NCBI RefSeq assembly: GCF_013122565.1
Contig: NZ_CP053258.1
DNA: 64,000 nucleotides
Strand: one strand, 5' to 3'
Source: Escherichia coli
Lineage (GTDB): Bacteria > Pseudomonadota > Gammaproteobacteria > Enterobacterales > Enterobacteriaceae
Each line of letters begins with the position of its first letter. The first letter of the stretch is position 1. Below, piece after piece: positions 50,900 to 55,652 of the stretch. The translations under genes and the position numbers were made by a program. The notes under the pieces were generated by a model. That model had not been told where the DNA came from, ran no database searches, and worked only from the letters and a program-made list of their open reading frames with translations.

Positions 50900-51769
50900 T
50901 TACTCGATTTTCTTTCCTTCCATCAATCGTTGCACCAGCGGCAGCATAATTAATTCCATTGCCAGACCCATTTTGCCGCCGGGCACCACTAACGTATTGA
51001 TGTGGGAAATGAATGAGCCTTGCAACATCGCCAGCAGCCAGGGGAAATCGATCCCTTCCAGATTACGAAAATGGATCACCACAAAGCTTTCATCCAGCGA
51101 CGGGATACCTTTTGCCGCGAACGGGTTTGAAGTGTCGACGGTGGGAACGCGCTGGAAGTTAAGATGGGTGCGGGAAAACTGCGGTGTGATGTAGTTGATA
51201 TAGTCTTCCATTGAACGCACTACTGAGTCCATCACTGCTTCTCGTGAGTGCCCGCGCTCGCTGGTGTCGCGGATCAGTTTTTGAATCCACTCAAGGTTAA
51301 CGATAGGCACCACGCCGACCAGTAAGTCCACATGCTGCGCAACGTTATGCTGTGGCGTGACTACACCGCCGTGTAAACCTTCATAAAACAGTACATCAGT
51401 GGGTTCCGGTAAAGGTTGCCAGGGGGTGAATGTTCCCGGTACCTGATTCCAGGGTACGGCTTCGTCGTAGGTATGCAGATATTTGCGAGATTTCCCTTTG
51501 CCGCTCTGACCGTATTCAATGAAGGTTTGTTCCAGCAGGCCGAAGTCGTTCGCTTCGGGGCCGAAGTAGCTGATATGCCGCCCGGCGTCACGCGCTTTAC
51601 GGATCGCCATGTCCATTTCCGGGCGGGTGTAACGGTGAAAACTGTCGCCTTCCACCTCAGCTGCATGCAGATTTAACTGCGCGAATATTTTACGAAACGC
51701 GAGGCTGGTGGTGGTGGTCCCCGCGCCGCTGGATCCTGTTACCGCAATGACCGGATGTTTGGCAGACAT
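50900..51769 (-). CDS. prkB: Phosphoribulokinase homologue
   Basis: ORF-track 289 aa; P-loop GSSGAGTTT. Confidence 0.9.
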   Translation of the reverse strand: MSAKHPVIAVTGSSGAGTTTTSLAFRKIFAQLNLHAAEVEGDSFHRYTRPEMDMAIRKARDAGRHISYFGPEANDFGLLEQTFIEYGQSGKGKSRKYLHTYDEAVPWNQVPGTFTPWQPLPEPTDVLFYEGLHGGVVTPQHNVAQHVDLLVGVVPIVNLEWIQKLIRDTSERGHSREAVMDSVVRSMEDYINYITPQFSRTHLNFQRVPTVDTSNPFAAKGIPSLDESFVVIHFRNLEGIDFPWLLAMLQGSFISHINTLVVPGGKMGLAMELIMLPLVQRLMEGKKIE

Positions 51770-51822
51770 AGTAACTCCATGACTTAGCTATCATTATTAT
51801 CTCGTCCGCCGACGGTTGCAGG

Positions 51823-52041
51823 CTATTCGCGAAACTGACTGCGCGGCATGATATTGACCGTTTCGTGCAGCTCCGACCATACCAGCACCGCTTCTCCGCA
51901 CTGTAGCTGGCGTTTGACGTCGGCGACTTTCTGTTCAAGTGTACGCTCATGTTCACCATAATCGGTGCCTTCACGTAACACAAAGCTTTCAATTAAATTT
52001 TCCAGCGTTTCGGGGGAGAGGTCTTGCCACGGAATCAACAT
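51823..52041 (-). CDS. yheU: YheU (UPF0270 family, 72 aa)
   Basis: ORF-track 72 aa; start overlaps the yheT stop by 7 bp. Confidence 0.8.
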
Positions 52042-53057
52042 GATTTCGCCTCCAGATACGTTGTTAACCAGTCAGGAATGCGTGACTCCAGCCACATTTG
52101 CGGATGAAGTAATGTACCGCCAATAAAGCCAACATGACCGCCATGTTCAGTCAGTTGATACTCCACCTGCGGGGGGAGACTTTCCGGTTTCGGGATCACC
52201 TGATGATCCATAAACGGATCGTCTTTGGCGTGAATAATCAGCGTCGGTTTGGCGATCCGGTTCAGCATCGGCATGGCGCTACACTGACGATAATAGTCGA
52301 TAGCGTCAGCGTAGCCGTGAATTCTGGCGGTGATGAGATCGTCAAATTCACGGATGCGACGTACCGATTTTAACTGCGCGAGATTAATCGGCAGTGTTCC
52401 GGGGTAGGCTGCCAGCTTGCGCGCGGCATTGGCTTTTAACAGGTTCAGCAAGTAACGCTGATAAACGCGGGAAAAGCCCTTTTCCATATGATAGCTACAG
52501 GCTTCCAGCATAAACGGCGCAGAGACAATCACCGCCGCATCAACAGGGAGATCATTGCCTTCTTTTGCCAGCAAACAGGCCAGCATATTACCGCCGAGCG
52601 AATAGCCGACGGCAGCCGTTGGCGCATGACCAAATTCGCGTTGCAGCCAGCGTAAAAACCAACTGGCGTCTTCGGTTTCGCCCGAATGGTAAATGCGGTG
52701 CATACGGTTTGGTTCACCGCTGCATCCGCGAAAATGCATCACCACGCCCAGCCAGCCGCGCTTTTGCGCCGCCTCAACCAGACCGTGGGCGTAAGGGCTA
52801 TTGAGACTGCCTTCGAGACCGTGAAACACCACTAAACGCGGTTTATGTTTCGCCTGTGCGGGGTTTTCACTCCACGCGAGATCGACAAAATCGCCGTCGG
52901 GCAACTCCAGCCGCTGCCAGTGCGGGGTGAATTTCACCTGGCGACGAAACAGACGCGGCAGCATGGTTTGTAGATGACAATTGCTAAAGCCGCGCATGGG
53001 GGTGAATTCAGCACTGCTGCTGAATTCATTGGCATCGGTCGTCGTTATCTGCGCCAT
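52035..53057 (-). CDS. yheT: Alpha/beta-hydrolase YheT
   Basis: ORF-track 340 aa; nucleophile elbow GYSLGGN; start abuts the yheS stop. Confidence 0.85.
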
Positions 53058-54970
53058 CAGTTGCTTTGGCCTTCCAGCAGCATCTGCTCAAGCTGCTCCT
53101 GGGCTTCCAGCCACGCCATTTCACACTCTTCCAGGCCGGATTTGGCGCTGGCTTGCTGTTGCAGGCAGGCGGTCAGCTCCGCTTTACGGCTTTGATCGTA
53201 CAGTTCGCTGTCGCCGAGTTTCTCTTCCGCCTGCGCCAGCTGTGCGTTCAGCTTTTCCATCTCTTTTTCCAGACGGGCGATCTCTTTACGCAGCGGTTGG
53301 GTTTGCGCACGCAGCTCCGCTTCCCGACGCTTCTGATCTTTACGTGCCTGGGCGCTGTTTGCGTTCTCTTTTGGCGCTTCGTCGGTCTGGTTTTCTTGCT
53401 TTTGTACGTCGCTCAACCACTGTTGATAATCTTCCAGATCGCCGTCGAACGGTTCGACTTTACGATCGTGAACCAGGTAGAGGTCGTCAGTGGTGGAACG
53501 CAGCAAATGACGGTCGTGCGAAACGACAACCAGCGCGCCTTCAAACTCGATTAATGCTTCGGTGAGTGCCTGACGCATGTCGAGGTCAAGGTGGTTAGTC
53601 GGTTCGTCGAGCAGCAGCAGATTCGGCCGCTGCCAGACAATTAATGCCAGCACCAGGCGGGCTTTTTCCCCACCTGAGAAGCGGCGCGTTTCTTCGGTTA
53701 CTTTATCGCCCTGGAAACCAAAGCCGCCGAGGTAGTCACGCAGTTTTTGCTCCAGTTCCTGCGGCGCTAAACGTGCCAGATGTTGAATAGGCGATTCGTC
53801 GGCGCGCAGGTATTCAAGTTGATGCTGGGCGAAGTAGCCGAGCTTGATCCCTTTTGCCAGGCCTATTTCACCACTGACTGGCGCAAGTTCACCGGCTAAC
53901 AGTTTGATTAATGTCGATTTACCCGCGCCGTTGCGGCCTAACAGACCAATGCGCGAACCGGGGACCAGATTCAGTTTAATCGAGTCGAGAACAATGCGAT
54001 CGCCATAGCCTGCGCTGACCTTTTCCATCTTCAGTAACGGATTTGGCAGACTTTCCGGCGCGCGGAAGCTAAAGCGGAACGGGTTGTCGACGTGCGCGGG
54101 GGCAATCAGCTCCATACGCTCGAGCATCTTAATGCGGCTCTGGGCCTGCTTCGCTTTGGTGGCTTTGGCACGGAAACGGTCGATATAACTTTGCAGATGC
54201 GCTACGCGTTCCTGCTGGCTTTCGTACATCGCTTGTTGCTGCGCCAGACGGGTGGCGCGCTGTACTTCAAACGAACTGTAGTTGCCGGTGTACTCGAACA
54301 TGCTTTGTTGTTCGATATGAATAATTTTATCGACGATCGGATCGAGGAAGTCGCGGTCGTGAGAGATCAGGATCAGCGTGCCCTGATAGCTCTTCAGCCA
54401 TTTTTCCAGCCAGATAACGGCATCGAGATCGAGGTGGTTAGTCGGTTCGTCGAGCAGCAGCAAGTCTGAACGGCAAATCAGCGCCTGGGCAAGGTTAAGA
54501 CGCATACGCCAGCCACCAGAGAAATCACTTACCGGGCGCTCCAGTTGTTCATTGCTGAAACCGAGGCCGTGCAGCAGGCTGGCGGCACGGGAGCGAATAC
54601 TCCATGCGTCAATAGCATCCAGCTTGCCATGAATGGTCGCAATGGCGTGCCCGTCGTTACGTTCGTTGGCGTCGTGTAGCTGCGCTTCCAGTTGACGATA
54701 TTCACGGTCGCCGTCAATGACATATTCCAGCGCCGCTTGCGGTAACGCCGGCGTTTCCTGATTCACCCACGCCAGTTGCCAGCTTCCCGGAAAGGTGTAG
54801 CTGCCGCCGTCGGCGCTGATTTCATTTTTCAGCAATGCCAGCAGGGTAGATTTACCACAGCCGTTTTTACCCACCAGGCCGACTTTCTGCCCGGGGTTGA
54901 TGGTGGCGGTGGCATTATCCAGCAGGACGCGCACGCCGCGACGAATTTGTAACGAGGAGAAAACAATCAT
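53057..54970 (-). CDS. yheS: ABC-F family ATPase YheS (two ABC domains, no TM domain)
   Basis: ORF-track 637 aa; two Walker A motifs (GKNGCGKST, GRNGAGKST), two signature motifs, C-terminal coiled-coil. Confidence 0.9.
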   Translation of the reverse strand: MIVFSSLQIRRGVRVLLDNATATINPGQKVGLVGKNGCGKSTLLALLKNEISADGGSYTFPGSWQLAWVNQETPALPQAALEYVIDGDREYRQLEAQLHDANERNDGHAIATIHGKLDAIDAWSIRSRAASLLHGLGFSNEQLERPVSDFSGGWRMRLNLAQALICRSDLLLLDEPTNHLDLDAVIWLEKWLKSYQGTLILISHDRDFLDPIVDKIIHIEQQSMFEYTGNYSSFEVQRATRLAQQQAMYESQQERVAHLQSYIDRFRAKATKAKQAQSRIKMLERMELIAPAHVDNPFRFSFRAPESLPNPLLKMEKVSAGYGDRIVLDSIKLNLVPGSRIGLLGRNGAGKSTLIKLLAGELAPVSGEIGLAKGIKLGYFAQHQLEYLRADESPIQHLARLAPQELEQKLRDYLGGFGFQGDKVTEETRRFSGGEKARLVLALIVWQRPNLLLLDEPTNHLDLDMRQALTEALIEFEGALVVVSHDRHLLRSTTDDLYLVHDRKVEPFDGDLEDYQQWLSDVQKQENQTDEAPKENANSAQARKDQKRREAELRAQTQPLRKEIARLEKEMEKLNAQLAQAEEKLGDSELYDQSRKAELTACLQQQASAKSGLEECEMAWLEAQEQLEQMLLEGQSN

Positions 54971-55097
54971 AAGGCGCCGTATGTTCAGACTATGTTAACT
55001 TATCATTATGATAATGTAATGTATGGGCGAGCTGCCGCACCGGGCGCAATGGTAGCCCAAAACAGCGACTATACACAAAAACCATACCGGGAGGGGG

Positions 55098-55652
55098 ATG
55101 ATGTCTCAGCCAGCGAAAGTTTTGCTGCTGTATGCCCATCCGGAATCTCAGGACTCGGTGGCAAACCGGGTACTGCTTAAACCGGCCACGCAGCTCAGCA
55201 ATGTTACCGTGCACGACCTTTACGCGCACTATCCCGATTTTTTTATTGATATCCCCCGTGAGCAGGCATTACTGCGCGAGCACGAGGTGATTGTCTTTCA
55301 GCATCCTCTTTATACCTATAGCTGCCCGGCGCTACTGAAAGAGTGGCTGGACAGGGTATTAAGCCGTGGTTTTGCCAGCGGGCCGGGAGGAAACCAACTG
55401 GCGGGAAAGTACTGGCGTAGCGTGATTACCACCGGCGAGCCGGAAAGTGCTTACCGTTATGACGCGTTGAATCGCTACCCGATGAGCGATGTCCTGCGCC
55501 CCTTTGAACTGGCGGCGGGCATGTGCCGGATGCATTGGTTAAGTCCCATCATTATTTACTGGGCGAGACGGCAAAGCGCACAGGAGCTGGCGAGCCACGC
55601 CAGAGCCTACGGTGACTGGCTGGCAAATCCGCTGTCTCCAGGAGGCCGCTGA
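55098..55652 (+). CDS. kefG: KefB ancillary protein (flavodoxin-like quinone oxidoreductase fold)
   Basis: ORF-track 184 aa; stop overlaps the kefB start. Confidence 0.85.

Follow-up and report, generated by a model that had tools for sequence, protein, structure and literature searches.

The yheS-yheT-yheU cluster of Escherichia coli most probably joins two units of different history, and the overlap between them is best read as a recent by-product of genome streamlining rather than as a signature of shared function. The cluster was examined in a 64,000-nt stretch of E. coli DNA (contig NZ_CP053258.1; hereafter the window), in which yheS, yheT and yheU are minus-strand genes in head-to-tail order, followed on the same strand, 53 nt downstream of yheU, by prkB. 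The features of the locus are the following.

53057..54970, minus strand: yheS, ORF of 637 aa
52035..53057, minus strand: yheT, ORF of 340 aa
51823..52041, minus strand: yheU, ORF of 72 aa, a small protein of the UPF0270 family
50900..51769, minus strand: prkB, ORF of a phosphoribulokinase homolog (NCBIfam PRK15453 at 524.7 bits)
53055..53059, minus strand: yheS/yheT junction TGATG, the yheS stop TGA and the yheT ATG with a 1-nt overlap, read from the sequence
52035..52041, minus strand: yheT/yheU junction ATGTTGA, the yheU ATG and the yheT stop with a 7-nt overlap, read from the sequence
54971..55097, no strand assigned: divergent intergenic region between the yheS and kefG ORFs, presumed site of the yheS promoter

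Both junctions are as an earlier note on this DNA had described them, the yheS stop abutting the yheT start at 53057 with one base in common, and yheT overlapping yheU by 7 bp. The Shine-Dalgarno contexts of yheT and yheU are unequal: a GGAGG lies at 52049-52053, inside the yheT 3' end and 7 nt before yheU, whereas no well-placed Shine-Dalgarno was found in the sequence upstream of yheT. The minus strand of the yheS-kefG intergenic region has only weak sigma-70-like matches, and no consensus promoter was found in the yheS 3' end (no sigma-70-like match of ≥8/12 in its last 640 nt), nor any Rfam element or leader between 50800 and 55700. A CRP-like site at 52081 was rejected, its two mismatches being within the background rate (8.6% per 260 nt). 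Genomic SELEX lists an internal RpoD promoter/site between yheS and yheT (PMC3946193), and the existence of a yheS-yheT-yheU operon in E. coli is already on record (bioRxiv 10.1101/2023.06.11.543863). The region is an ordinary, already described E. coli cluster; the 3.4-kb segment from 51700 to 55100 has at most 98.9% DNA identity to any complete E. coli genome, as expected of DNA from a slightly divergent strain of Escherichia/Shigella type. Of 5426 such genomes, 5423 retain the yheS/yheT junction (95-99% identity).

From the tight coupling, the earlier note had argued for stoichiometric co-expression and a functional link between the ATPase and the hydrolase. This interpretation is not supported; the unequal Shine-Dalgarno contexts, the internal RpoD site and the spacing of the genes in related species count against it. 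Overlaps are frequent around the locus, with 13 among the 56 same-strand neighbours of 50 kb of annotated E. coli sequence, including functionally unrelated pairs (e.g. trpS/gph/rpe), so that the yheS/yheT overlap is no more than chance would give. The genes damX-dam-rpe-gph-trpS of the same 50-kb region have start/stop overlaps of 1-8 nt and no common pathway. Relatives were sampled as the best 80 of at least 600 matches from a contig scan with a diverse YheU alignment. This set holds Enterobacterales only and does not include Salmonella, E. fergusonii or Shigella, so 'Escherichia only' is a statement about the sample; wider sampling, outside the best-80 set, covered 12 single loci. The yheS/yheT overlap was present in two of the 76 assessable Enterobacterales species, E. 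coli and E. albertii. Elsewhere in this sample the two genes are separated by 97 bp to >7 kb, with gaps of ≤100 bp in 3/76 loci, 101-600 bp in 3/76, 601-900 bp in 16/76 and >0.9 kb in 20/76, while in 32/76 no yheS occurs within the upstream sequence available, which extends over ≥6.9 kb in 26 cases. The spacer carries an opposite-strand LysE-family gene in 44 of the 80 loci, malonate decarboxylase genes in 18, tauABCD in 16, and nadV with a predicted ribose-phosphate pyrophosphokinase-like gene and nrtR in 11-12.

An overlap limited to Escherichia is weak evidence for joint action of both proteins. We weighed a reading in which the three proteins make up one functional module: the hydrolase, for which YheU would serve as adaptor, would act on a translation-related ester such as peptidyl-tRNA, or on a product of stalled complexes resolved by YheS, with the overlaps matching dosage. 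We consider this improbable. The genes do overlap and are reported to be co-transcribed in E. coli, and a same-orientation yheS and yheT-yheU neighbourhood recurs in distant gammaproteobacteria; against this, direct coupling in two of 76 species, the opposite-strand genes that split most pairs, and the unequal Shine-Dalgarno contexts all count.

According to the reading we favour, yheS and yheT-yheU would be separate transcription units in most Enterobacterales, with opposite-strand genes between them, and loss of the spacer in the Escherichia lineage, probably by deletion, would have brought the stop codon of yheS right up to the start of yheT. Relatives with short gaps carry a terminator-like hairpin followed by T residues between yheS and yheT and, 3' of the hairpin, a promoter-like element, TTTTCAtAAAC...GGTATAGT, ~35 nt before the yheT ATG. 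Both are absent from the window, in which no trace of the spacer genes (LysE, tau, nadV, mdc) was found either. Since the deletion would have taken the hairpin and the promoter-like element with the spacer, yheT-yheU of E. coli would then depend largely on read-through from yheS. That the change was a deletion in Escherichia, and not a set of insertions elsewhere, is suggested by the distribution of the arrangements rather than by a dated tree. The deletion could instead have been selected, placing yheT-yheU(-prkB) under a low, stress-related yheS promoter and creating new co-regulation with no physical partnership. The promoter-like and CRP-like elements that stand upstream of yheT in other Enterobacterales and are missing in the window would suit such rewiring, as would the near-complete retention of the junction among E. 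coli genomes and its presence in E. albertii. However, a neutral deletion is equally expected to fix within one genus, the reported internal RpoD-binding site would keep some independent yheT expression, and yheS deletion has no known phenotype in the assays tried; we accordingly give adaptive selection little credence.

Judged by gene order, the conserved unit is yheT-yheU, not yheS-yheT. The yheT/yheU junction gap ranges from -49 to +5 nt in all 76 Enterobacterales loci, 43 of which have ATGA (-4), and the overlap is kept outside the order at ~40% YheT identity (L081, L087, L091, L095, L099 and L100). A prkB gene lies ≤210 nt after yheU in 77 of 78 Enterobacterales loci, and also at L094, L098 and L099, and is the usual third member of a yheT-yheU-prkB run adjoining yhfA and crp. 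Some loci have yheT-yheU without a nearby yheS (L081, L095 and L098) or yheU without yheT (L083, L084, L089, L093 and L094), and both patterns speak against a three-protein module. The proposed three-gene linkage thus survives for YheT with YheU, whose junction is tight in 76/76 loci, and fails for yheS with yheT (2/76). Tight yheT/yheU coupling in and beyond Enterobacterales, usually with prkB near crp, suggests joint action of YheT and YheU, possibly in a complex, and a function that would not be tied to the ribosome. YheU itself matches PF06794, NF003438 and the 1y0n fold, and has a conserved REGTDYG motif. Its assignment to the Pfam family HU-CCDC81_bac_2 was rejected (17 bits against a cut-off of 35), and a 4021-aa 'YheU-like' protein (P0196) proved to be a spurious match, a eukaryotic mucin.

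The wider fkpA-slyX-yheV-yheS...yheT-yheU neighbourhood is old. In three contexts outside Enterobacterales (L091/L092, L099 and L100), yheS precedes yheT-yheU on the same strand at ~0.5-3 kb, and Ousalem et al. reported that yheS, yheT and yheU often lie side by side elsewhere too. The gene overlapped by the yheS stop is nevertheless one for DUF2390, instead of yheT, in three gammaproteobacterial contexts beyond the order. Weak functional selection, in addition to inherited gene order, could account for this old neighbourhood. Taken to its limit, yheV-yheS-DUF2390-yheT-yheU-prkB would be an old gammaproteobacterial functional module, in which the ABC-F protein, DUF2390 and YheT/YheU work on a translation-linked substrate, for example in the hydrolysis of aberrant peptidyl or aminoacyl esters, and Escherichia would have compacted an existing partnership; we hold this to be very improbable.

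The first of the two units is yheS, which encodes an equivalog-level ABC-F ribosome-binding ATPase. The earlier note had recognised the ABC-F architecture from two ABC cassettes with no membrane domain, and the motifs bear this out. Two complete cassettes lie in one polypeptide, Pfam PF00005 (ABC_tran) matching two stretches, with Walker A at residues 34 and 345, the signature FSGG at 150 and 431, LLLLDEP at 170 and 451 (catalytic glutamates E175 and E456) and the H-loop at 202 and 483. The PtIM linker PF12848 (ABC_tran_Xtn) scores 102.1 bits over residues 217-299. Kyte-Doolittle hydropathy over 19-aa windows reaches a maximum of 1.22, hence there is no membrane segment, and no membrane-domain Pfam match was found in YheS. 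The protein scores 1406.6 bits against the NCBIfam equivalog NF007921 (cut-off 917) and stays below the cut-off of all other ABC-F models except a generic ribosomal-protection-like model. For the coiled-coil tail that had also been claimed, composition is favourable, the last ~107 residues being 74% Q/E/A/L/K/R in a charged helical C-terminal extension, while the ABC_tran_CTD match (PF16326-type, residues 560-622) reaches 30 bits against a cut-off of 32; the extension has been described as coiled coil and essential (PMC6723617, PMC11162784). Ribosome association is upheld by full-length matches (E=0) to the YheS chains of the ribosome-bound structures 9vvi and 9nlh and by published descriptions of YheS as an ABC-F ribosome factor (PMC13249984, PMC11162784, PMC6723617). 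Cryo-EM and biochemistry indicate that E. coli YheS binds the ribosomal E site and acts on the P-site tRNA (PMC13249984, PMC11162784). In the mechanism published by others, ATP-form YheS would occupy the E site with its PtIM pushed against the P-site tRNA, by which nascent-peptide-dependent stalling (SecM) would be relieved. In a reconstituted in vitro system, YheS on its own suffices to release SecM arrest (PMC11162784), which speaks against the module of YheS with YheT and YheU.

The second unit, yheT-yheU, encodes a predicted Ser-Asp-His hydrolase and the 72-aa UPF0270 protein, with translational coupling of the two genes. YheT is a putative alpha/beta-fold serine hydrolase on the evidence of its motifs and predicted structure. 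It matches Pfam Abhydrolase_1 at 1.4e-41 and NCBIfam PRK10985 ('hydrolase') at 647.8 bits, and presumably belongs to the UniProt 'AB hydrolase 4 family', of which we take eukaryotic ABHD1 and ABHD3 also to be members. The GYSLGG motif on which the earlier note had based its hydrolase assignment begins at residue 151, and HGLEG was found at 79, DDPF at 279 and GGHVGF at 306. These provide a candidate nucleophile, S153, with triad partners D280 and H308 and an HG oxyanion motif at 79-80; H79, G80, S153, D280 and H308 are invariant in 21 YheT homologs with identity down to 40%. The AF2 model (pLDDT 89.7, pTM 0.90) has an alpha/beta hydrolase fold, and Foldseek returned 1570 PDB matches at E≤0.001, all of them alpha/beta hydrolases among the matches listed. 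A homolog search with YheT gave close relatives only, among the matches listed; no solved structure was detected by sequence search, and no published assay of YheT esterase activity was found in the literature searched. An intact esterase-type triad would be in keeping with the three-protein module, the peptidyl-tRNA bond being an ester, but the nearest YheT folds are lipid and small-molecule esterases, the best Foldseek matches being generic esterases and monoglyceride lipases at ~15% identity.

Were YheT and YheU to work with YheS, a housekeeping ABC-F of bacteria would have its first accessory enzymes, and the search for the clients on which YheS naturally acts would have a lead. The evidence points against such a partnership, and any polar effects that deleting yheS has on yheT, yheU and prkB would be specific to E. 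coli. YheT and YheU are the pair that merits joint study; in loci outside Enterobacterales, yheS is coupled to the gene for DUF2390.

Compared with known systems, YheS of the window shows no substantive difference from E. coli K-12 YheS (9vvi, 9nlh), with the same domain order and both E175 and E456 present. Like EttA, Uup, YbiT and the antibiotic-resistance ABC-Fs VmlR, MsrE and LsaA, it has two cassettes flanking the PtIM, lacks a membrane domain and binds the E site. It differs from EttA, Uup, YbiT and the resistance proteins in having its own equivalog model and falling below the cut-offs of theirs, and would differ from YbiT in its C-terminal extension, a putative coiled coil of PF16326 type. 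SecM arrest is the client reported for YheS, in contrast to the antibiotics of the resistance ABC-Fs (PMC11162784). YheT has the layout common to the YheT-type hydrolases (PRK10985), namely HG...GxSxG...D...H in an Abhydrolase_1 domain with a helical lid. YheU has the UPF0270 family membership and fold of PA3463 of Pseudomonas aeruginosa (PDB 1y0n), and, unlike E. coli YheU, some other distant UPF0270 homologs (e.g. L083 and L084) are encoded without an adjacent yheT.

Open reading frame (ORF) calling placed yheS, yheT and yheU in tandem on the minus strand of the window, followed by the phosphoribulokinase homolog prkB:

53057..54970, minus strand, yheS, ORF of 637 aa
52035..53057, minus strand, yheT, ORF of 340 aa
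51823..52041, minus strand, yheU, ORF of 72 aa
50900..51769, minus strand, prkB, 53 nt downstream of yheU

The yheS stop and yheT start codons have one base in common (53055-53059, reverse complement TGATG), and yheU starts within the end of yheT with a 7-nt overlap (52035-52041, reverse complement ATGTTGA); read from the DNA, these ORFs and junctions agree with the coordinates and description in the earlier note. The divergent kefG-kefB pair lies upstream of yheS, and yhfA and crp lie past prkB. A one-base stop/start overlap of the same type as yheS/yheT also joins kefG and kefB (55650-55652). Megablast of positions 51700-55100 against 5426 complete E. coli genomes recovered the four genes, annotated alike as yheS, yheT, yheU and prkB, in 5423, with identities of 95-99%. 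The top identity was 98.9%, which is low for a typical strain of E. coli and suggests that the window may derive from Shigella or from a divergent lineage of Escherichia.

The assignment of YheS as an ABC-F protein with two full cassettes and no membrane domain was borne out. Pfam identified two PF00005 cassettes and the ABC-F linker PF12848 (residues 217-299), together with a below-threshold match to the C-terminal domain PF16326, and the protein scored 1406.6 bits against the NCBIfam equivalog NF007921 (cut-off 917). The Walker A, signature, Walker B and H-loop motifs are each present twice, with catalytic glutamates E175 and E456, the final ~107 residues are 74% Q/E/A/L/K/R, and a sequence scan found no hydrophobic segment. 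The deposited YheS chains 9vvi and 9nlh were matched at E=0. YheT belongs to Abhydrolase_1 (Pfam) and passed the PRK10985 equivalog (NCBIfam); its HG (79-80), GYSLGG (S153), DDPF (D280) and GGHVGF (H308) motifs do not vary across 21 homologs, the most distant at 40% identity. A sequence search detected no relative of YheT with a solved structure, and fold matches to its confident AlphaFold model (pLDDT 89.7) were confined to esterases, lipases and monoglyceride lipases of a generic kind, with ~15% identity.

Gene overlaps are common around the locus: of the 56 same-strand neighbours annotated over 50 kb, 13 overlap, among them trpS/gph, gph/rpe and tusD/yheO, whose members are unrelated in function. 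The closest purine-rich run 5' of the yheT ATG is GGAAGG, ending 12 nt upstream, and yheU is preceded by GGAGG (52049-52053) 7 nt upstream of its start; because these translation signals are unequal, equal output would not be expected.

To compare gene order across Enterobacterales, one genome per species was scanned with a 40-sequence YheU alignment, the best 80 of at least 600 matches were retained, and E. coli proteins were placed in these 80 loci by tblastn, leaving 76 assessable for junctions. The yheT/yheU junction lay between -49 and +5 nt in all 76, most often as ATGA (-4; 43 loci), with +1 in 15 and -7 in four, and in 77 of 78 loci prkB came after yheU at a distance of no more than 210 nt. 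The yheS-yheT interval was distributed as follows.

Spacing of yheS and yheT in 76 Enterobacterales loci
Overlap: 2 loci (E. coli, E. albertii)
Gap of ~98 bp: 3 loci
Gap of 101-600 bp: 3 loci
Gap of 601-900 bp: 16 loci
Gap of 0.9-6.6 kb: 20 loci
yheS not in the available upstream flank: 32 loci (flank of at least 6.9 kb in 26 of the 32)

Within this sample, which is without Salmonella, E. fergusonii and Shigella, the yheS/yheT overlap therefore appears lineage-specific, an addition of the present study. The earlier note was right in its observation and in the identity of YheS; its proposal that tight coupling implies stoichiometric co-expression and a functional link is unsupported, given that overlaps are common, translation signals are unequal and yheS and yheT overlap in two of 76 loci. 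In Acerihabitans arboris (locus L076, 7268-8210) yheT is absent, and the order is yheS-lysE-yheU-prkB.

The yheS-yheT spacer carries genes of varied function. In 44 of 80 loci the gene directly 5' of yheT is an opposite-strand member of the LysE family. The spacer holds malonate decarboxylase genes as a cluster in 18 loci, tauABCD in 16, and, in 11-12, nadV with an nrtR-type NUDIX regulator and a predicted ribose-phosphate pyrophosphokinase-like gene (our label for a tblastn match); no remnants of any of these were found in the window. The spacer is an insertion hot spot with cargo varying by genus (L003, L005, L027, L052, L057, L078 and others), and a ydhR-like gene is part of the cargo in some loci.

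Conserved upstream signals also appear to precede yheT in other Enterobacterales, a further addition of this work. A GC-rich hairpin with a T run behind it lies just 3' of yheS in the relatives whose spacer is ~98 bp and in several more, and in many Enterobacteriaceae a conserved promoter-like element, TTTTCAtAAAC...GGTATAGT, lies ~35 nt 5' of the yheT ATG; the two occur together at L010:2556-2652, L025:6884-6981, L039:6884-6981, L038, L012, L017 and L018, and junction comparison indicated that both are missing from E. coli and E. albertii. In many families outside Enterobacteriaceae, a CRP-like palindrome, TGTGAtattgaTCgCA, occupies a constant position in the short spacer between the divergent lysE and yheT genes, ~59 nt 5' of the YheT F18 codon (L050, L052 at ~6975-6990, L055, L074, L078 and others); sites with at most two mismatches were present in 37 of 76 loci, compared with a background of 8.6% for random stretches of 260 nt. 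In the window, the 3'-terminal 640 nt of yheS contain no sigma-70-like match of at least 8/12; a published list includes an internal RpoD-holoenzyme binding site in the yheS-yheT interval (Shimada et al. 2014, PMC3946193). Read most simply, yheS would form one transcription unit and yheT-yheU-prkB another in most Enterobacterales, and a deletion in the Escherichia lineage, a direction of change that we infer, may have taken out the spacer and fused the two.

Beyond Enterobacterales, YheU homologs of 45-64% identity were obtained by searching 1.84 billion representatives, followed by look-up of approximately a dozen contigs (numbered between L081 and L100). An overlapping yheT-yheU pair recurred in L081, L087, L091/L092, L095, L099 and L100, and Alginatibacterium sediminis (L098, 6190-7381) has the inverted order yheU-yheT-prkB-osmC-crp, with yheU first and a 23-nt overlap. 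Elsewhere yheU occurs without yheT, adjoining crp or prkB (L089, L093, L094; in L089 alone between rpoC and crp, 4748-5725), in a zipA-ligA cluster (L083), or downstream of a small HTH_31 gene, with short ORFs of no annotation around it (L084-L086); from L089 and the Acerihabitans locus it follows that yheU can persist without yheT. One listed homolog, P0212 (271 aa), fuses the UPF0270 domain to a circularly permuted YpsA/SLOG domain, which together with the HTH_31 neighbour hints that UPF0270 may serve as a partner in ligand binding or regulation. The 4021-aa P0196, with nine 'YheU-like' stretches, was rejected as spurious, Pfam identifying a VWD/mucin-type eukaryotic protein.

Among these contigs only L091/L092, L099 and L100 carry yheS upstream and co-oriented, and in none of them does it adjoin yheT. 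In these three other gammaproteobacterial contexts, the only ones where it was seen, its stop reaches 11-29 nt into a DUF2390 (PF09523) gene (L091:2074-4513, L099:5546-7949, L100:3087-5490), a coupling added by the present work; further genes, including an opposite-strand GMC oxidoreductase, follow DUF2390 in two of the three. DUF2390 was found neither in the window nor in any of the 80 Enterobacterales loci, and may be the real conserved partner of YheS. These distant loci suggest that the fkpA-slyX-yheV-yheS...yheT-yheU neighbourhood is old and that yheS-yheT co-transcription is not. Because the regional synteny is old, a true partnership of YheS with YheT/YheU retains some small probability, and we consider it improbable.

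The best-supported picture is of a known ABC-F factor and an independent, deeply conserved hydrolase/UPF0270 pair, often accompanied by prkB and crp, the two units probably having been joined recently in Escherichia. The yheS-yheT-yheU arrangement is already known, and the observation has been published together with its puzzle. YheS counts among the four ABC-F proteins of E. coli, its ATPase-dead form stops protein synthesis, and yheS interacts genetically with bipA (Murina et al. 2019, PMC6723617). Ousalem et al. (bioRxiv 10.1101/2023.06.11.543863) described yheS, yheT and yheU as a single operon in E. coli and cautioned that yheS deletion may change yheT, yheU and prkB expression. In a reconstituted system purified YheS freed SecM-arrested ribosomes, requiring its linker, C-terminal extension and ATP hydrolysis (Chadani et al. 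2024, PMC11162784), and its structure has been solved on the SecM-stalled ribosome (Iso et al. 2026, PMC13249984).
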